A stretch of DNA of 64,000 bases from Dictyostelium discoideum. Its lineage: Eukaryota. The stretch lies in the NCBI GenBank assembly GCA_000004695.1, contig CM000150.2:192001-256000 (forward strand), read 5' to 3'. The position numbers and the translations under genes are program-made. The notes under the pieces were generated by a model, which worked only from the letters and a program-made list of their open reading frames with translations, was not told where the DNA came from and did not search any database. Within the stretch, counting starts at the first letter, position 1, and every line of letters starts with the position of its first letter. This document shows, in pieces, positions 1 through 9,375 of the stretch.

Positions 1-89
1 AAACTCTTTTATGAAAATATCATTTTGATAATTTTCATAATTAATGTGGCTGAGAAAAAGAGAAAGTAAAGCAGGGGAAAACAGTATTT

Positions 90-139
<50 letters not shown>

Positions 140-305
140 TATTTTGTAAATTTTGATTATATTAATTTATACACACTATTTCATTACCAAAAAATACTTG
201 GCTATCGGAAATATAAACTTTAAGATTGTGGTTTTTTTCACCTTTTGAATAAATGGCTAAACTGTCAACTACTTTTGTTCTTGTGTTACTATCCTTATTA
301 CTTAC

Positions 306-624
306 CCATTTTGTTAACCTTGCAAAAATATTTTGACTGGTACAATCTTCGTTACTACCACCAGCTTGTTTAATTATTCCAGTAATAAAGAAATTTGAAA
401 CCTATTTATTTAAATTTATTAATTTTTTTTTTTTTTTTTTTAAAACTATTAATCTGGTAACATACATCGCCATCTGAATAGTATTTACTTTGACAAACTT
501 TCTGAAGACTTTCGTATTCCAATATGTATGTTACACGTGGGTTTGTGGCTATTTGCACTGTTTCTTGGATTGGTGGAACAGTTGGCCTTTGAACTCTTCT
601 AATTATTATTCTCTGGTTTTCCAT
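306..624 (-). CDS. Hypothetical protein, first two exons (466-624 and 306-401); the 3' part of the gene runs past the window start
   Basis: True ATG at 622-624. Exon A 466-624 ends at a GTATGT donor and exon B 306-401 follows a TAG acceptor, in phase. Exon B ends ...ARLTKW at a GTAAGT donor at 300-305. The protein MENQRIIIRRVQRPTVPP...SDGD/VSNFFITGIIKQAGGSNEDCTSQNIFARLTKW is not recognised. The first intron contains the ORF-track stop at 406. Confidence 0.4.
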
Positions 625-1022
625 TGGGTTTGGAGCATTTCAATTTCCTAATACATTACCTATTGACAAATTATTAACTGATTCATCTCCGATAGAAATA
701 TTATTGTTTGTTCTTCTTTGGATTGGTGATTGGTTAAAATCAGGTACATTACCATTTGGTGCTACACAGCGAAGAAAAAACCACCTTTAAATTCGCTTTA
801 AATTAAATTTAAATTTGCTTTAAAGTCCTGAATTAAAGCAATTTTAAAGGTAATTTTAAAGGTAATTTTTAAGGTTACTTTAAAATCACCTTAAAAATTA
901 CCTTTAAAATTACCTTTAAAATTACCTTTTTAATCGCTTTAAAAGCGAGGTCCTGAGTTCGAAGCCGTTATTTAACGGATAAATTTTTTAAAATTTTTTT
1001 TTTTAATTTTTCAAAAATTACC

Positions 1023-1090
1023 AAAAGGGATTCGATCCCCTGACCCTCTATTAAAGGGTAGTCTCATCAACCATTACACCATTTGATTGC
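1023..1090 (-). tRNA. Degenerate tRNA-like pol III unit (tRNA pseudogene or tRNA-derived element) with intact A and B boxes
   Basis: Minus-strand read: GCAATCAAATGGTGTAATGGTTGATGAGACTACCCTTTAATAGAGGGTCAGGGGATCGAATCCCTTTTGG. It has an A-box-like TGGTGTAATGG, a B-box/T-arm GGATCGAATCC with a T-stem AGGGG/CCCTT, and an anticodon stem-loop ACCCT-TTAATAG-AGGGT (anticodon AAT). The acceptor and D stems cannot be closed and the variable loop is 1 nt, so it is not a functional canonical tRNA. A T-run follows the T-arm. The retrotransposon begins 48 bp upstream of its predicted +1. Confidence 0.4.
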
Positions 1091-1122
1091 TTTGATGAAA
1101 ATTTAAAAATGATAGAATATTT

Positions 1123-1138
1123 TATCCCCATTTTTTTG
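1123..1138. repeat. Target-site duplication, left copy (tatccccatttttttg)
   Basis: The 16-bp sequence tatccccatttttttg lies immediately 5' of the element start (gagatcgaaaaaaac) and is repeated exactly at 3527-3542, after the element's terminal oligo(A). Confidence 0.7.
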
Positions 1139-1403
1139 GAGATCGAAAAAAACAAACAACAACAACAATCTCTTTTTTTGATTATTTCATTTTTCATATA
1201 AAAAAGACTTAAAAAACAAATAAATAAATAAATAAACTATTTTAAAAAGCCATCTTTTTACTTTATTGTAATTTATTATTTGTTTCGTTTTGAGAATTTT
1301 GCGTAGCAAAATTTTCAAAAAAAAAGCAAAAAATAATCAGATCGAAAAAAACAAACAACAACAATCTCTTTTTTTGATTATTTCATTTTTCATATAAAAA
1401 AGA

Positions 1404-1439
<36 letters not shown>

Positions 1440-1515
1440 GGAACCCAAGTTAATCAGAAAATTTCCAGATTTTTAACTTTTTAAAGAAAAATAAAAAAAA
1501 TAGAAAGAAAATAAG

Positions 1516-2850
1516 ATGAAAATCACAAACAACACCACAAATATTAAGCAACACAAATGCCTACAAAAAATAAGCGAAATTGTGGATAAAACTCAATTAA
1601 AAAAAAAACAATTCAAATACGTCATAAACATCAATCACGAACCAGACGATAAAATAAAAAAAGATTTAGAAAAAAGTTTGGACAAAAAAGATGTTTTAAT
1701 CAAAAGTAATAATACATTCAAAATTCTCACAGACAGTATTAGTACAGTAATCTATTTTGTAAATATGTTTGATGCAGAATTAAAAGGACAATTTATAACC
1801 ACTATAAGACCAAAAAATATGTATACAGATTTTGATTGGTATAAATCACTCACAGAAATAGAATGGGTAATAGAAAATGAAGGATGTAAACTAATTAAAT
1901 TAGAAATTAAAGGCGAAACTCTAATTATCAAAACAGTGAAAAGAGTCGTAGAAGAATTTGACACTATCATTGAACTAGACAATCTAACATTAATTGGACA
2001 CTCCAACAAAGGATGGAGAGATCAAACCTCATTACCAGAAAATCAAGAAGAAAACAAAAATAAAAAACAATCAGATGAACAACAACCACAATCTACATCA
2101 GAACAAATACCAAAACAAGGAAAAAGAACAATCATTATCCCACCAATCACATCCTCATCTAATGATAAAACATTTATGGCCCTAGATGATACAGCTCAAA
2201 AGGTAATAGAAGCATCACTAGAAAACGTAGATGAACTAACAAGAATAGAGAATGAGATCAATACACAATCGATAAACAATCAAGAAATTAAAACAAAATC
2301 AGAAAAACCTATCGAACCACCATCTCCATACAATACACCAATAAAACAACACGGCGAAACAAAGGGACTAACAACGGAAGAAAAACTTAGAGAGGCAAAT
2401 GATATCTTCGACTTCACCAGCCCAAACACTGATGCAATAAGAAAAATAGAATTCCCACTTTCAATCCCTTCAAATCAATGGTTCTTCTCCTCTCCAATAA
2501 AACATATCATGAGTTTCAGCCCAACCTATGGTACACCATCGAAAATTATCGATTCACCAAGTAAATTGTTAAACACACCAAAAAAGAAACAACAAGACAA
2601 AACAAACAAGACCAACAAAACACCAGTCAAACCAAAATTGGGTGAATATGGACAAAAAAGCATAAAAACAAAAATGGATGAAGATATAGACAACTTCAAC
2701 AAGGAAATTCTAAAACAAATCAATAAATCAAAAAACCCCACAAACACACAAGACCAACAACACAACGAACAAAGTAAAGATCAGTTAGAAGACAAAATAA
2801 ACCAGAAACTTCAAAAGGTAGATAAAAATCTACCCCAAATAAAACTATAA
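1516..2850 (+). CDS. Retrotransposon ORF1 protein (444 aa, TRE5-A ORF1-like)
   Basis: Intact ORF from a true ATG, a basic/Q/N/K-rich protein. It is positioned between the 5' modules and the ORF2 endonuclease start, and its size (about 51 kDa) matches TRE5-A ORF1. Confidence 0.65.
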   Translation: MKITNNTTNIKQHKCLQKISEIVDKTQLKKKQFKYVININHEPDDKIKKDLEKSLDKKDVLIKSNNTFKILTDSISTVIYFVNMFDAELKGQFITTIRPKNMYTDFDWYKSLTEIEWVIENEGCKLIKLEIKGETLIIKTVKRVVEEFDTIIELDNLTLIGHSNKGWRDQTSLPENQEENKNKKQSDEQQPQSTSEQIPKQGKRTIIIPPITSSSNDKTFMALDDTAQKVIEASLENVDELTRIENEINTQSINNQEIKTKSEKPIEPPSPYNTPIKQHGETKGLTTEEKLREANDIFDFTSPNTDAIRKIEFPLSIPSNQWFFSSPIKHIMSFSPTYGTPSKIIDSPSKLLNTPKKKQQDKTNKTNKTPVKPKLGEYGQKSIKTKMDEDIDNFNKEILKQINKSKNPTNTQDQQHNEQSKDQLEDKINQKLQKVDKNLPQIKL

Positions 2851-2864
2851 AGAAAAACACAATA

Positions 2865-3104
2865 AGAATAGGTGTTTGGAACATCCAAGGATCCAACACC
2901 ATCCAATCTGCCAGCATAATAAACACCGTTTTAGACAACAACAAGCTGGACGCAGCACTTCTAACTGAAACAAATATAAAAACAAATAAAATTTACTCAA
3001 TAAATCAACAATATAAAAACAAAATAACACACCACGCACCAATTGATAAAACAGGACAAGGGGTGTCACAAATCATCATCAACACCCGCAATAGAACTTC
3101 CTAA
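2865..3104 (+). pseudogene. Truncated ORF2 fragment holding only the N-terminal part of the apurinic/apyrimidinic endonuclease domain
   Basis: Translation is RIGVWNIQGSNTIQSASIINTVLDNNKLDAALLTETNIKTNKIYSINQQYKNKITHHAPIDKTGQGVSQIIINTRNRTS, carrying the VWN..G and LxETN APE motifs. It stops at 3102-3104 and is followed by a 54-nt oligo(A). No reverse-transcriptase domain is present. Confidence 0.6.
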
Positions 3105-3146
3105 ACATCTCAAAAAATACAATAATTCACTCAGTACTTTCTATAA

Positions 3147-3204
<58 letters not shown>

Positions 3205-3245
3205 CAAGTTAATCAGAAAAATAAAAAAGATAGAAAGAAAATAAA

Positions 3246-3446
3246 ATGAAAATCACAAACAACACCACAAATATTAAGCAACACAAATGCCTACAAAAAA
3301 TAAGCGAAATTGTGGATAAAACTCAATTAAAAAAAAAACAATTCAAATACGTCATAAACATCAATCACGAACCAGACGATAAAATAAAAAAAGATTTAGA
3401 AAAAAGTTTGGACAAAAAAGATGTTTTAATCAAAAAGACCCTGTAA
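3246..3446 (+). pseudogene. Duplicated 5' fragment of ORF1 (first 66 codons) within the same insertion
   Basis: Near-identical to 1516-1713 (MKITNNTTNIKQHKCLQK...KKDVLIK) and then diverges into the 3' terminal module. It is preceded by the leader aacccaagttaatcag, also seen at 1442-1460. Confidence 0.6.
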
Positions 3447-3526
3447 AAAAAAAAAATAAATAAAATGAGATCTAGCATCTCAAGGAGAAGCAAATAATAA
3501 TTGCGTTATCCAATTCAAAAAAAAAA

Positions 3527-3542
3527 TATCCCCATTTTTTTG
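3527..3542. repeat. Target-site duplication, right copy (tatccccatttttttg)
   Basis: Exact 16-bp repeat of 1123-1138, directly after ...gcgttatccaattcaaaaaaaaaa. Confidence 0.7.
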
Positions 3543-3958
3543 TTCTAAAATTAGATCTTTTTTATTAAAAACCTTAAATTTATGTTTAAAGGAAATTTAA
3601 ATTCACTTTGAATCTACTTTAAATCTACTTTAAATCCTATTTAAAATTAATTTAAAATAAATTTTAAAGGTATTTTTAAATATCTTAAAAATTATCTTAA
3701 AAATTACCTTAAAAATCACCTTTAAAATCACCTTTAAAATTGCTTAAAAAATTATTTTAAAGCAAATTTTAAAGGCATTTTTAAATATCTTAAAAATTAC
3801 CTTAAAAATTACCTTAAAAATGAATTTTTTAAACGCGGCTTTAAATTCAATTTAAATCCAATTTAAATCAACTTTTCTTTAAATTTGCTTTAAAGGTGCA
3901 TTTTTCTTTGCTGTGTAACCAATCATTTGGTACTACAAATAATAATAATTTATTATTT

Positions 3959-4984
3959 TTATTCATTTCCAATATAATTTTCTATATCCAGCATTATAGA
4001 ATAATCTTTCTTGTTTTGACACTGCATACTATCAGTGAATATTCTAAGTAAAACAATTTTATTTTTATTTTTATTTTTTAAATCTTTAAATTGTTGACCA
4101 CTTTTATAATTTGTATAAATTCCAGTTTCAAAATCTGTATCAAAATCTATTCTTTCAAAAAATTGCTTTTTATTTAATAAAGTTTCTAATACTTTTTTAA
4201 TTTCAAAATAAAAAATTGAGTGATCATAATTTTTATTTATAAATGTTTCTCCTTTTATTTGAAAATCTTCCATAAATAATTTATCCATATATTGAGGTGT
4301 GTATCTTATTTGATTTAAATTGGTTTTATTTTTGTCAATAAAACTTTTAAATTTTTCAAGTAGCTTTAAACTTATTGAGTTTTCAATTCCCAACATTAAA
4401 AATTCAATTTCAGTTTCATTTAATTTTTTTTTTGATTTTTCATTATCTAAATTATTATTTAGATTATTATTTATTGGTTCGTTTTGAGCATTTTCATTTT
4501 CATTATTTTCATTATTTTCATTATTAATGTTTGCTTCATTTTCATCTATTCTAATTTCATTGTTTTCATCTTCACTATGTACCAACCCAATTATATCATG
4601 ATTTTCTTCATTATCAATTGTTTGATTGTTTTCATTATTTTCATTATTTTCTTGATAAAAAATTTCATCTTGGTTTTGGTTACATAAATGTTTACATGGG
4701 TCATCTGGATCATTTGTTGGATATTTTATTTTTTCACCAGTAATATCCATTAATTTTTTATAAAAGCTATCTCTTTTTTGATTATTTGTAATAATTTTAT
4801 TTTGTTCATTTTTACATTTTTTGGTGTTGAAATGTCCATTTACATCATAAAATTGTTTATAAGAACGGTAATATGCAAGACAAAATGGACATATATTTTT
4901 ATGCATAATATAATGAATAATAATATTTTTAAAATTCTTTAATTTTTCTCTGCAATTAATGCATGATATGTTATTTAAATTCAT
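3959..4984 (-). CDS. Hypothetical protein with an N-terminal C2H2-like zinc finger and an acidic N/E-rich low-complexity region
   Basis: 341-aa ORF from a true ATG at 4982-4984. The motif CINCREKLKNFKNIIIHYIMHKNICPFC has C-x2-C...H-x3-H spacing. No introns were needed. Confidence 0.5.
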   Translation of the reverse strand: MNLNNISCINCREKLKNFKNIIIHYIMHKNICPFCLAYYRSYKQFYDVNGHFNTKKCKNEQNKIITNNQKRDSFYKKLMDITGEKIKYPTNDPDDPCKHLCNQNQDEIFYQENNENNENNQTIDNEENHDIIGLVHSEDENNEIRIDENEANINNENNENNENENAQNEPINNNLNNNLDNEKSKKKLNETEIEFLMLGIENSISLKLLEKFKSFIDKNKTNLNQIRYTPQYMDKLFMEDFQIKGETFINKNYDHSIFYFEIKKVLETLLNKKQFFERIDFDTDFETGIYTNYKSGQQFKDLKNKNKNKIVLLRIFTDSMQCQNKKDYSIMLDIENYIGNE

Positions 4985-5660
4985 TTTGTTTGCTGGCTGG
5001 AAATTAAAAATAATATTTTTTTTTTTTTTTTTCCTCGAGTTTTTACGTTTTTTTTTTTTTTTTTTTTCATTTTATTCAAATTTTAGCATTATAGCAAGTA
5101 GATATATGATTTAGTACTTAGAATTTTATATTTAGAGGGATATACCCCATTTTCAAAAAATGACGGGGAACCTATGACCCTGTCTATACCTTTTTCTTTT
5201 TAAAATATTAAAAAAAAAAACTATAAAATCTGCCCAATTTATTGTAAAACTACACTAATGCAATAATATACATGTGCACTCGTTAATTGTTTATTAATTA
5301 TAAAAAATAAAAAATAAAAAATCTTTTTTTATATGTATGTTTATACTTATAATATAAATATGCAAAACAAATAATTAAATTTTTTTTTTTTTTTTTTTGA
5401 TATTTTTCGCTTTTTGAAATGAGAAGTAAAATTTAAAATAACATAATATAAAACCCAAGGCAACTGAAACACTTATTTATTATTAATTAATAAAAATAAT
5501 AATAATAGAATTCAATTGCCACTGAAACAAATAAATAAAGAATTAAAATTAATTTGGTTATCTTTTTAGTTTTTTTTTTTTTTAATTTTCTTAATTTTTT
5601 TTTTTTTTTATTTTCTTATTTTTTTTTTTTTTTTTTATTAAATTTGGAATAAATAGTTAT

Positions 5661-5922
5661 TTTAAAGGTGCATTTTTCTTTGCTGTGTAATTTTAAATTA
5701 CATTAAAAATAACTTTTTTAAATTTATTATAAAGTGATTAAAACATTATTTAAAAACCGCTTTATAATAAATTTAAAAGGTCATTTTTAATATAATTATA
5801 AATGACCTTAAAAATATCTTTAAAATTACCTTTTTAAAAAGCAAATTTAAAGCCAATTTAAAGCAAATTTAAATTGTATTTGCTTTAAATTGGCTTTAAA
5901 GGTGCATTTTTCTTTGCTGTGC
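5661..5922. repeat. Further copy of the short AT-rich element: terminal motif tttaaaggtgcatttttctttgctgtg at both ends in direct orientation
   Basis: 5661-5690 tttaaaggtgcatttttctttgctgtgtaa and 5897-5922 tttaaaggtgcatttttctttgctgtgc, separated by about 200 bp of ttaaa/aaatt-rich sequence similar to the interior of the 761-3918 element. Confidence 0.45.
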
Positions 5923-6900
5923 AAAAATGAATAATAAAAAATACTACATACATTAGGTTTATTTTTTGCAAAGTCGGAAACAATATTCATATTTTCTTAC
6001 CAAAAGTTTGATTTAAATAAATAAATTTATTAATTGAACTAAGATTATCACTAAGATTTAATACATTTAAAAAAAAAAAATTAAAAAATATAAAAAAAAA
6101 AGTTTTTATTTTTTATTTTTTATTTTTTTTTTTATCAGGAAAAAAAATAAAACAAATAATAATAACAATACTAGTAATCAATATAAAATCAATAAATTTT
6201 ATTTAAATAGAAATGAAATATTAAAATTATACCACTAGATTTTTTTTTAAAAAAAAAAAAAATAAAAAAATAAAAAATAAATAAAATAAAAAATAAATAA
6301 AAAAAAAACAAGAAAAACCATCAATAAAATGACATTTAAAACAAAATGAAATTTCAAAGAGAATTAAAAATGAAAATTAAAAAGTATTCCTGTAAAAATG
6401 GAATTTAATTTTAATTTTAATGGTATTAAAATGTTATATCTTGATTTGATTGGTCACAGCAAATGATATAAAATATATTTCCAACTCGTTTTTCTTCAAA
6501 ATAAAACAATTAAAAATGAAAAATTATCAAACACTCCAAATTATTTATTATTAAAAAAAAATAAAAAAAAAATTTTAGGAAAAAGAATTATTTTAATTTC
6601 CATTATTTTAATTTTTAAATTTTATATAATTTTGTGTATTTGTGACTGCTCAATTTATCCTATTTATCTGATTTAGATTATTTTTTTAGGTTTAAAAATA
6701 TTTCTTAACACCAACCCAATTATTTATTTGAAATATTTGAAAGGATTTAAATAAGATAACAAACTTTGATCTGAACTGTTATTGTTATTATTACCACTAT
6801 TATTAAAATTGTTTGAATTATCTAGAGGCTACAAAGAATTTTTAAAGATTGAAAAAAAATTTAATATTCCTTCTATTGTTATTTCAAAAGTTGTAATGTT

Positions 6901-6987
<87 letters not shown>

Positions 6988-7000
6988 GAGGATAACTTAC

Positions 7001-7223
7001 AAGCATATATAAAGTTGAAACTGGTAATAAACCTAATTGACGAATTGATAGATTCAATTGATTCAAAGTAAAAGGATTTCCAGTTGGTTGGGTACACAAT
7101 GCATAAGAACAAGTACCATCAGTACGATTTGAATTTATGAATTTTTGAACGGATCTTAAGGTGTCAGTAGCCATGAAATCATATTGAATTCTAGCTCCAT
7201 TAGTTTGAATAATCCCAATTTCT
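7001..7223 (-). CDS. Probable downstream exon of the AN1 zinc-finger gene; the 3' end of the gene is unresolved
   Basis: Acceptor ...tatatag at 7224-7225 and GTAAGT donor at 6995-7000. The reading is in phase: (G)EIGIIQTNGARIQYDFMATDTLRSVQKFINSNRTDGTCSYALCTQPTGNPFTLNQLNLSIRQLGLLPVSTLYML. It joins the upstream exon that ends ...SSEEIG at 7527 in phase 2. The flanking introns are (ATT)n microsatellites. Confidence 0.35.
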
Positions 7224-7228
7224 CTATA

Positions 7229-7400
<172 letters not shown>

Positions 7401-7526
7401 TTATTATTTTTTTTTTAAAATTTAGTAAAAGATTAATACCCAAAGGTTGCATGATTAGAACCATTTACATCATCATAAAGAATAAAATAAAAAAACAAAA
7501 CTATAAAAAATAATAAAATTAAATAC

Positions 7527-8556
<1,030 letters not shown>

Positions 8557-9216: not shown

Positions 9217-9375
9217 ATGTCTCTTAGCAACAACCAAACCCAATTCGTAACAGTTTTCGTTCCAATCCAATTATCAATTGATGTTTTCAGAAAAATGAAC
9301 AACATCAATTCTTTTGTTAATGACAACCTCACCAACTTTCCAATTGTAACTGTTGACCAACTTATCAAAGTTGTC

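Follow-up and report, generated by a model that had tools for sequence, protein, structure and literature searches.

Introduction

The DNA transposon families listed for Dictyostelium discoideum are Tdd, DDT and thug, and thug makes up 0.1% of the genome (PMC5633606). The DDT family accounts for ∼0.9% of the genome, and its transposases are said to resemble no known transposase (PMC5633606). [quoted passage not shown] MITEs (Stowaway, Tourist, Made1/mir-548) are short, A+T-rich, non-coding elements with terminal inverted repeats (TIRs), short TSDs and hairpin-forming arms; they descend from an autonomous partner and rely on it.

A separate literature deals with RNA polymerase III (pol III) promoter elements as integration targets. 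The tRNA genes of D. discoideum contain an A box and an internal B box, carry an external B box as well, and are targets of the retrotransposon TRE5-A; the B-box consensus is GTCnnnnGTTCRAnYC (PMC3159450). Integration of TRE5-A has also revealed isolated B boxes in the rDNA palindrome (PMC3159450), which, like the ETC sites of yeast, are pol III factor sites outside real tRNA genes.

Here we analyze a 64,000-nucleotide stretch of D. discoideum DNA (the window; contig CM000150.2 of assembly GCA_000004695.1, positions 192,001 to 256,000), the first 5921 bp of which form the edge of a transposon cluster on chromosome 1 of strain AX4. A 27-base motif that recurs in this region belongs to the termini of a family of cut-and-paste DNA transposons. 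The family consists of a 5-kb transposase-encoding element, here called T, and a 750-bp non-coding derivative, S, that carries a tRNA-like promoter unit.

Results

A repeated terminal motif and the layout of the locus

The 27-mer TTTAAAGGTGCATTTTTCTTTGCTGTG matches the window exactly at 3889–3915, 5661–5687 and 5895–5921, always in plus orientation. An inverted copy at 765–791 matches at 24 of 27 positions (three mismatches), and no further match occurs anywhere in the 64 kb. The chance expectation is zero, and none of 100 dinucleotide-preserving shuffles contained the motif. An initial annotation of this DNA had described the same pattern of three plus copies and one diverged, inverted copy, which the matches bear out; its end coordinates were 2–4 bases out, and the true ends of the short element are C765 and G3915. 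The features of the locus are collected in Table 1.

Table 1. Features of window positions 1–5921, with supporting comparisons (L numbers designate sampled loci)
Start	End	Strand	Feature	Support
1	762	-	T, 3' part: inter-ORF spacer and degenerate ORF2 remnant (in-frame stop)	homology to L003, L008
763	764	.	TA flanking S, left; pairs with TA at 3916–3917
765	791	+	S left TIR, CACAGCGAAGAAAAAACCACCTTTAAA	24/27 to inverted motif; identical in four other copies
792	945	.	S left arm: 11–12-bp subterminal repeats AATTTTAAAGGT / CTTTAAAATTAC, partly palindromic
951	978	+	Second B-box-like motif GTCCTGAGTTCGAAGC, then small hairpin CCGTTATTTAACGG	15/16 to GTCnnnnGTTCRAnYC
1018	1088	-	tRNA-like unit: A box TGGTGTAATGG (1081–1071), B box GTCAGGGGATCGAATC (1038–1023)
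1124	1138	.	Retrotransposon TSD, left copy, ATCCCCATTTTTTTG	single copy at L007 empty site
1139	3527	+	TRE5-A.2-type non-LTR retrotransposon: AB-ORF1-BC, oligo-A tail
3528	3542	.	Retrotransposon TSD, right copy, ATCCCCATTTTTTTG
3543	3888	.	S right half: upstream region of tRNA-like unit and right arm with 11–12-bp repeats (3596–3869)
3889	3915	+	S right TIR, identical to T 5' terminus
3918	4984	-	T transposase ORF1, N-terminal 357 codons (DDB_G0268476; ORF 3959–4984)	exact match to XP_647065.1
4985	5658	-	T 5' leader / promoter region	98.8% identity to L001, 99.7% to L007
5659	5687	+	29-bp solo end, left over from a family member	stands where three other T copies have 88 bp
5688	5921	-	T terminal 234 bp, terminus at 5895–5921	same end bounds T in L003, L005, L008

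The host element is a defective, minus-strand copy of T, and S is nested inside it. Window segments 1–760 and 3919–5921 are homologues of the two halves of T. The former is 95% identical to L003 12410–11648 and 86% identical to L008 9435–8702, both of which belong to T copies and lie downstream of their transposase ORF; the window copy of T extends past the window start. At the other side, the outer boundary of the transposable element (TE) cluster falls at 5921/5922. L007, the orthologous locus of another strain, has the solo end too (9339–9365); the motif at 5661–5687 is what was left of a further family member after the rest was lost by deletion.

Structure of T and affinity of its transposase

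T is a ∼5-kb element with two ORFs and CACAGC…GCTGTG ends, and ORF1 encodes a DDE transposase of ∼815 amino acids. A near full-length copy in L008 (5034 bp) has the shared termini, ORF1 and ORF2. Copies in L003, L005 and L008 have 2-bp target duplications, and those recorded for T are GG, GA and TG. In the window, the product of DDB_G0268476 shows 99% identity to the first part of protein P0001; its reading frame contains a frameshift near the end and is truncated at the S insertion. In AX4, members of the transposase family occur at 10 or more DDB_G loci, and two autonomous lineages, ∼50% identical, can be distinguished. No fully intact transposase ORF was found among the sampled loci, the L008 copy having one frameshift, and present-day mobility of S and T is unproven.

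A Pfam search with the D. discoideum T proteins gave no direct hit. A profile of the T family, on the other hand, reaches proteins with Pfam Transposase_21, DUF4218 or DUF1258 domains, Transposase_21 (tnp2) being the domain of recognized CMC transposases, and two of the profile-matched proteins score above the PF02992 gathering score (P0092, 39.1 bits; P0127, 32.5 bits). Aligned by hhalign, the T family and CMC match over 414 columns (probability 99.4%, E = 4e-21), with correspondence of D (LLRIFtD), D (TMDIPE), C(2)C (CHTC), H(3)H (HLLLH) and E (FEaQ), the motifs by which CMC transposases are recognized. The residues concerned (D310, D387, C407-x2-C410, H612-x3-H616 and E636) are invariant or nearly so in the T alignment.

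Other features of the family point in the same direction. T and S have 5'-CA(C)…(G)TG-3' termini and 2-bp TSDs, the TSD length seen in Mirage and some CMC MITEs (PMC6004678). Both also contain arrays of 11–12-bp subterminal repeats in both orientations, comparable to the ∼12-bp arrays of CMC elements. T has a second ORF, as does En/Spm with its TnpA, and the short derivatives of the CMC group (dSpm, CMC MITEs) are mobilized in trans. The terminus CACAGCAAAGAAAAA resembles the En/Spm terminus CACTACAAGAAAA. There are differences too: the transposase is very remote, with a profile-only link; the host is an amoebozoan; and the short derivative carries a pol III module. The T transposase is a remote relative of the CMC group, an assignment that depends on remote profile matches.

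S is a dispersed, MITE-like element

Removal of the retrotransposon (1139–3527) leaves an S of 747 bp, in keeping with the ∼750 bp originally proposed, and an uninterrupted 747-bp S is found at the orthologous locus in L007. The 747 bp contain no ORF of at least 50 amino acids. Pairing between the two ends (765–791 versus 3889–3915) is complementary at 24 of 27 positions, and this is conserved in five S copies. S has the same CACAGC…GCTGTG termini as T and the same class of subterminal repeat; its right end matches the T 5' end, and its left end resembles the T 3' end. Tandem Repeats Finder (TRF) reports periods of 11, 12 and 24 in the arms (785–944 and 3596–3869), so that the tandem units of the initial annotation stand, with a length greater than the ∼10 bp given there. 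The unit YACCTTWAAAA, the core of these repeats, repeats the inner half of the terminus. It occurs 14 times in the window (1.3 expected), 12 of them inside the elements, and the 11–12-bp units are found in both orientations on both arms.

Copies of S measuring 690–774 bp are present on other contigs. Those on other contigs and chromosomes show 94–98% identity, a further subfamily lies at 82%, and every copy includes the tRNA-like unit. Across ∼190 kb of TE-rich loci sampled in four strains, we counted six full-length copies and five partial ones. Target duplications are uniformly 2 bp (TA, TA, GT, TA, TG), and paralogous empty sites on other contigs were identified for three S copies and one T copy. 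One caveat here is that both TAs around the window S are native T sequence and that this S sits at a 1.6-kb deletion junction inside T; its TA/TA flanks are hence not a clean TSD, and the 2-bp rule was taken from the other copies with empty sites.

S is therefore a real, dispersed, mobile non-coding TIR element of MITE-like character, with foldback-like arms built of short repeats, in keeping with the MITE- or foldback-like repeat proposed in the initial annotation. Like a MITE, it is non-coding, smaller than ∼800 bp and A+T-rich, has a short TSD, forms hairpins in its arms, and both stems from and relies on an autonomous partner whose termini it shares. It differs in that its 747 bp reach the upper size limit, its copy number seems modest, insertion is mostly into other TEs, and a tRNA-like unit is carried as passenger. 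The transposase of T, perhaps together with the ORF2 product, would bind terminal and subterminal sites of both elements. S or T would be excised at the CAC/GTG ends and reinserted through a 2-bp staggered cut, with S mobilized in trans.

Alternative readings of the motif and of S

The four motif occurrences within 5 kb, and the 75% identity between 5742–5924 and 3736–3918, could be taken to indicate three copies of a single unclassified, tRNA-derived MITE- or foldback-like element, one of them with direct termini at 5661–5922; this was the initial proposal. We find it very unlikely, because the segment 5688–5921 is the terminal 234 bp of T, contiguous with the transposase gene in four loci, and 5659–5687 is a 29-bp remnant standing in place of 88 bp of T. 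The supposed direct termini are thus a solo end and a T terminus, and the sole S copy in the window, instead of three sets of termini, is 765–3915. The arms of S, moreover, come from T ends and not from a tRNA. Clustering of all four copies within 5.2 kb might also be put down to a local segmental duplication with no mobile family behind it, but that reading is refuted, and its probability is close to nil: copies with different flanks, 2-bp TSDs and paralogous empty sites lie on at least six other contigs or chromosomes, in four strains.

Two further readings concern the class of S. TA/TA flanks in three of five copies, the window copy included, and sub-threshold Rfam hits to mir-548, a mariner-MITE-derived hairpin, would fit a Tc1/mariner-type (Stowaway-like) MITE that targets TA. 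However, other S copies have GT and TG duplications backed by empty sites, GG, GA and TG are the duplications at T copies, and the transposase of the element that shares these termini is of CMC type, not Tc1/mariner. TA is simply common in DNA of 78% A+T, and the miRNA-hairpin hits reflect only the palindromes of the left arm. We regard a Tc1/mariner origin as highly improbable. The internal A box, B box and tRNA-like stretch could instead suggest a tRNA-derived, SINE-like retroelement whose inverted ends are coincidental. But the pol III unit of S is central and not 5', neither an A-tail nor a LINE-like tail is present at the 3' end, S shares its 27-bp TIRs with the transposase-encoding T, and the TSD is a constant 2 bp. 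We accordingly reject this reading, which has almost no probability left. S is not tRNA-derived in the SINE sense: its arms come from the autonomous element, and the tRNA-like unit is a passenger in its interior.

The tRNA-like unit and the TRE5-A.2-type insertion

The initial annotation was right that the short element carries a pol III tRNA-like unit. Besides its A box and internal-type B box, the module has T runs and a second B box, and so resembles a D. discoideum tRNA locus. The first B box matches the consensus at 15 of 16 positions, with the A box 32 nt upstream. The second is kept in all S copies and is a perfect B box in L004 and L001_13036. The Rfam tRNA model RF00005 aligns end to end, but its score of 12.5 bits here, and of 14.8 bits in a consensus-like copy, falls short of the gathering score of 29. 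ARAGORN found no tRNA in the unit, and its acceptor and D stems are unpaired. The cloverleaf cannot form, and the unit is not a functional tRNA.

The retrotransposon within S is flanked by a 15-bp direct repeat. Its ORF1 (1516–2850) exactly matches a multicopy AX4 protein cluster, and its B-module duplicates (1485–1705 and 3215–3435) are 99% identical. At the orthologous locus of strain GCA_054883475.1 (L007) the retrotransposon is absent, leaving an empty site with a single target copy. The insert starts 50 bp from the tRNA-like +1 (position 1088), head-to-head, and 108 bp from the B-box core. Structure, orientation and distance to the tRNA are those of TRE5-A (PMC3159450; geometry also in PMC5633606), and the insertion has canonical TRE5-A geometry, the insert lying ∼50 bp upstream and the two 5' ends facing each other. 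Only in the AX4 lineage did TRE5-A.2 land at this site, and the module would still recruit the pol III factors TFIIIC and TFIIIB, as the insertion suggests. The unit has served as a TRE5 landing pad, in keeping with the idea put forward initially; just one of the six full-length S copies examined contains a TRE element.

Compared with D. discoideum tRNA genes, the unit shares the A box, the internal B box and its GTC signature, another B box ∼50 bp past the 3' end and the position at which TRE5-A strikes. It differs in lacking a cloverleaf (12–15 bits versus 29), in having the extra B box on the opposite strand, and in traveling inside a DNA transposon. Unlike isolated B boxes and ETC sites, S has both an A and a B box, and the site is mobile.

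We also compared conservation across subfamilies and across the D. discoideum/D. cf. discoideum split. Conservation is 82–92% in the A box, the B boxes and the upstream region on the TFIIIB side, versus 57–82% in the transposon arms, and the anticodon region drifts freely. It is conceivable, if rather doubtful, that the pol III module is a selected part of S and not a decaying passenger.

Identity of the family

Glöckner et al. reportedly included DDT-A, DDT-B and DDT-S in their 2001 catalogue of D. discoideum elements, and we take T and S to be DDT-A/B and DDT-S of that work. The identification was made by elimination among the three listed families, and the elements were matched by description; on this footing T and S are most probably the catalogued DDT-A/B and DDT-S. 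DDT comprises two autonomous forms and a short form, and here we see two ∼50%-identical lineages of a ∼5-kb element and a ∼750-bp derivative. Both DDT and T/S are DNA transposons of D. discoideum that tend to sit in TE clusters, and no feature is known to set the two apart. No mention of a tRNA-like module or of a CMC affinity for DDT was found in the accessible literature.

That the family is real but not DDT, being either thug or an element absent from the 2001 catalogue, is unlikely. The AX4 proteins of the T family are named only 'hypothetical' or 'C2H2-type domain-containing', which would fit an uncatalogued element; however, this naming is uninformative, since known TE ORFs (TRE5-A ORF1, Tdd-5) carry plain DDB_G names too. 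A 5-kb element with at least 10 loci in AX4 takes up more of the genome than the 0.1% given for thug, Tdd elements are integrase-type, and two autonomous lineages plus one short form mirror DDT-A, DDT-B and DDT-S. Published miRNA candidates (Table 2 of PMC4894637), including miRNA_can_D3, which is possibly thug-S-derived, match neither the window nor the T/S loci, the thug-S-derived entry being ambiguous in that table. 'Unclassified' is therefore probably the wrong label, and the motif probably belongs to an already named element: the pair fits DDT as described, and the transposase falls in the CMC group.

Discussion

A confusing 6-kb stretch can now be read as a nested set: a defective T, S inside it with its passenger module, a strain-specific TRE5-A.2 insertion and a solo end, with T and S most probably DDT-A/B and DDT-S. 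We hold this reading as a whole with high confidence. The 'gene' DDB_G0268476 is a transposase fragment. The family itself is most probably already known, as the catalogued DDT, and the findings on T and S leave the general understanding of transposons unchanged. Two points may be new. Transposases said to be unlike any known (PMC5633606) can be assigned to the CACTA/Mirage/Chapaev group, and their elements make 2-bp target duplications; and the tRNA-like A/B-box unit of S behaves as a genuine TRE5-A target. DNA-transposon copies can therefore create ectopic landing pads at sites that are not real tRNA genes.

Should the module prove to be a selected part of S, this would be a DNA transposon carrying a portable TFIIIC/TFIIIB binding site, with possible roles as a chromatin boundary or in protection from silencing. 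Wherever S inserted, tRNA-targeting retrotransposons would then gain another 'safe' landing pad, and the two classes of transposon would spread in a coupled manner.

A short mobile element nested in a larger transposon

A motif search of the 64-kb window, which lies on chromosome 1 of D. discoideum AX4, for the 27-mer TTTAAAGGTGCATTTTTCTTTGCTGTG, the terminus common to the short non-coding element (S) and the ~5-kb transposon around it (T), gave three exact plus-strand copies and one inverted copy (see table). There were no others in the 64 kb and 0 matches in 100 shuffles, so the repeated terminus of the initial annotation is real. The tandem repeats it reported inside the element are likewise present, but their unit in the S and T ends is 11–12 bp rather than ~10 bp. 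The core YACCTTWAAAA occurs 14 times in the window versus 1.3 expected, and 12 of the 14 lie within the element cluster. Outside positions 1–6000, low-stringency BLAST of the S arms against the window returned just A+T-rich noise. A metagenome scan for the terminus gave three chance matches, on contigs of 36–49% G+C sharing no other similarity. Sub-threshold Rfam matches at 844–919 to mir-548 and mir-3938 (42.6 and 39.3 bits; thresholds 90 and 94) are of the generic A+T-rich palindrome kind, because the subterminal repeats form a near-perfect 76-nt palindrome there, and are no evidence for a miRNA gene. Just beyond the cluster (6890–7900) are long (ATT)n and (TAT)n tracts, typical low-complexity sequence for D. 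discoideum, which generate mechanical ORFs rich in poly-Y, poly-I and poly-N.

Removal of the retrotransposon leaves 765–1138 plus 3543–3915, a 747-bp S, in line with the ~750 bp proposed from the sequence. At the orthologous locus of another strain (L007, GCA_054883475.1; 99.2–99.8% identical to the window), S sits intact in the same place without the retrotransposon, and the 15-bp target is single copy (empty site at L007 11443–11458). This empty site validates the reconstruction and indicates a recent, strain-specific retrotransposition in AX4.

Comparison loci were reached by homology search with the neighboring ORF in annotated assemblies from several strains of D. discoideum. They contain uninterrupted S copies, a subfamily and fragments (see table). 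Flanks vary by copy, with 2-bp duplications TA, TA, GT, TA and TG; for three copies the duplication was verified against paralogous empty sites, which can be found because many insertions sit within other repeated elements. A 12-bp similarity in both S flanks (CATTTGGTRCTA) was rejected as the target site duplication (TSD), since on one side it is shifted by 8 bp and other copies lack it. The motif is therefore not confined to this locus, and S is a real, mobile, dispersed family. A relative in D. cf. discoideum, inside a reverse-transcriptase gene, has a different and much shorter left arm (terminus CACAGCAAATTTTTTGACACC) and a well-conserved A-box/B-box center with a perfect B box, GTTCGATTC.

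Positions and properties of the elements and their features
Feature	Position	Size or identity	Details
27-mer, plus strand	window 3889-3915	exact	
27-mer, plus strand	window 5661-5687	exact	
27-mer, plus strand	window 5895-5921	exact	
27-mer, inverted	window 765-791	3 mismatches	
A box	window 1081-1071		TGGTGTAATGG
B box, internal type	window 1038-1023	15/16 of consensus GTCnnnnGTTCRAnYC	GTCAGGGGATCGAATC
Second B box	window 951-966		GTCCTGAGTTCGAAGC; other strand than first
S copy, uninterrupted	L001 13036-13809	94-98%	
S copy, uninterrupted	L001 15366-16122	94-98%	
S copy, uninterrupted	L003 577-1266	94-98%	
S copy, uninterrupted	L003 14872-15629	94-98%	
S subfamily	L005 18780-19494	82%	
S-related fragment	L004 7160-7433		D. 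cf. discoideum
T, nearly intact	L008 5218-10251	5034 bp	CACAGC...GCTGTG; TSD TG
T copy	L003 9004-13126		TSD GG
T copy	L005 9004-13879		TSD GA; many empty sites in repeated element

Window segments 3919–5921 and 1–760 are both repeated elsewhere, where they form part of one arrangement: an end, the leader, ORF1, ORF2 and the other end. In the nearly intact L008 copy, a single frameshift interrupts ORF1 (~814 aa), and a second ORF begins MNSSANFI. Given this order and the T copies elsewhere, the motif at 5895–5921 is T's own terminus. The motif remnant at 5659–5687, present in AX4 and L007 alike, is specific to this locus; where it stands, three other T copies carry 88 bp of unrelated sequence. 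It is therefore a solo end, left behind after a family member had inserted at a TA and had then been mostly deleted along with adjacent DNA. The reading of 5661–5690 and 5897–5922 as the two ends of one short element thus fails. S and T are related: the right end of S is identical to the T 5′ end, its left end (CACAGCGAAG...) resembles the T 3′ end (CACAGCGATG...), and the S arms are 67–75% similar to the T subterminal regions.

Rearrangement of the transposon copies

T lies on the minus strand, with ORF1 running from 4984 to 3959; the ORF at 3962–4984 is an exact match to XP_647065.1 (DDB_G0268476). A 2-nt deletion gives rise to the stop at which this gene is annotated to end (...IGNE then stop, versus ...IGNEFKNNKLLLFVVPNDWL in the family protein P0001). 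DDB_G0268476, a 'C2H2-type domain-containing protein' in UniProt, consists of the 341 N-terminal residues of a frameshifted transposase.

T homology ends at 3918, past codon 357 (...VVPNDWL), and picks up beyond S at ORF2 codon 8–9 (TA followed by GCACCAAATGG); thus ~1.6 kb of T is missing exactly at S, and the TA at each S junction belongs to T itself. Most simply, the gap would have arisen either by recombination between two inserted S copies or by an adjacent deletion mediated by an S end. A composite at L001 9007–12916 runs from the T 5′ end and a portion of the transposase into a partial S and then into a second, inverted copy of the T 5′ end, ~1 kb long, with mismatched outer flanks (TA/TC). 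Its structure resembles what aberrant transposition between S and T ends would yield. As this rearrangement is of the same type as the window gap, it suggests that the shared termini promote aberrant transposition. At L002 10001–12211, the transposase gene model P0009 finishes on the opposite strand of the homologue of window ~575–640 (…WDSWPLDSS…), which is an artefact of gene annotation where the copy is rearranged.

Transposase family and probable identity of the elements

The T transposase family occupies at least 10 AX4 loci and comprises two lineages ~50% identical. At least nine AX4 fragments are listed besides DDB_G0268476, all 'hypothetical proteins' (DDB_G0267274, DDB_G0267348, DDB_G0270822, DDB_G0287249, DDB_G0291257, DDB_G0294010, DDB_G0294226, DDB_G0294264 and DDB_G0294296). 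This name is uninformative as a clue to transposon masking, because TRE5-A ORF1 bears it too. The second lineage (L009 6001–8448; proteins P0046–P0056), at ~50% amino-acid identity, is multicopy in D. discoideum; no bounding termini were found in the single locus fetched.

Pfam gave nothing significant for the window ORFs, the family members, T ORF2 or the short retrotransposon ORF2 fragment, consistent with PMC5633606, where the transposases of Dictyostelium DNA transposons are said to resemble none that are known. A 12-member profile searched against 1.84 billion representatives recovered 62 remote relatives (E 1e-8 to 1e-3), some with Pfam Transposase_21 above threshold, or DUF4218 or DUF1258. 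Transposase_21 is tnp2, the CACTA transposase. In profile-profile comparison the match extended over 414 columns at 99.4% probability (E = 4e-21). It placed LLRIFtD against the 'DG' aspartate, TMDIPEF...CHTC against the second aspartate and C(2)C, HLLLH against H(3)H, and FEaQ against the glutamate. Together with CA..TG termini and 2–5-bp TSDs, these motifs define the CACTA/Mirage/Chapaev(/Transib) clade (PMC12730594), and MITEs of the CMC type that have CAC/GTG ends and a 2-bp TSD are on record (PMC6004678).

The D. discoideum DNA-transposon families listed are just Tdd, DDT (0.9% of the genome) and thug (0.1%) (PMC5633606). Tdd elements are of integrase type, and the small genome share of thug does not fit a 5-kb element at 10 or more AX4 loci. 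The presence of two autonomous lineages and a single short form presumably matches DDT-A, DDT-B and DDT-S, reportedly described by Glöckner and colleagues in 2001. T and S are thus probably the DDT family, as judged by elimination and by that reported composition; subject to that caveat, the family is probably already known. The texts searched gave no sequence, length or terminal inverted repeat for either DDT or thug. Compared as a check for thug-S, published small RNAs gave no match to the window or to any T or S locus, and their supplement gives no thug-S sequence. Separately, L001 22067–22088, in a transposon-rich stretch, matches miRNA-like_D4 exactly, a small RNA with four mapping sites, two near telomeres (PMC4894637).

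A tRNA-like unit as probable retrotransposon target

No tRNA was called in S by any program used. At relaxed thresholds, the Rfam tRNA model aligned end-to-end at 1088–1018 on the minus strand (12.5 bits; 14.8 on a consensus-like S copy; threshold 29). The B-box consensus applied here is that of D. discoideum (PMC3159450). T runs are also kept. Across subfamilies the boxes are retained while the 'anticodon' region varies, and conservation is somewhat higher in the S center than in the arms. TRNA-like boxes had been predicted within each copy, and every S copy found has such a center.

The insert (1139–3527), flanked by a 15-bp direct repeat (1124–1138 and 3528–3542), has the AB-ORF1-BC layout described for TRE5-A.2 (PMC3159450). 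Its B-module duplicate is 99% identical, and its ORF1 exactly matches a multicopy AX4 protein. The distance from the insert is 50 bp to tRNA-like position +1 and 108 bp to the B-box core, the published TRE5-A geometry (~50 bp, fixed orientation, with '-108' as an example; PMC3159450). As B boxes alone are enough for targeting (PMC5633606), this canonical geometry suggests that TFIIIC/TFIIIB recognize, or recently recognized, the unit.

The initial annotation was accurate as observation and right in part as interpretation: a mobile S with a tRNA-like center stands, and a short copy at 5661–5922 does not. Nicely nested though it is, this is an ordinary transposon locus. Possibly new are the CMC placement of the transposase, the 2-bp TSD supported by empty sites, and a pol III module that serves as a TRE5-A target, with strain polymorphism of that insertion.
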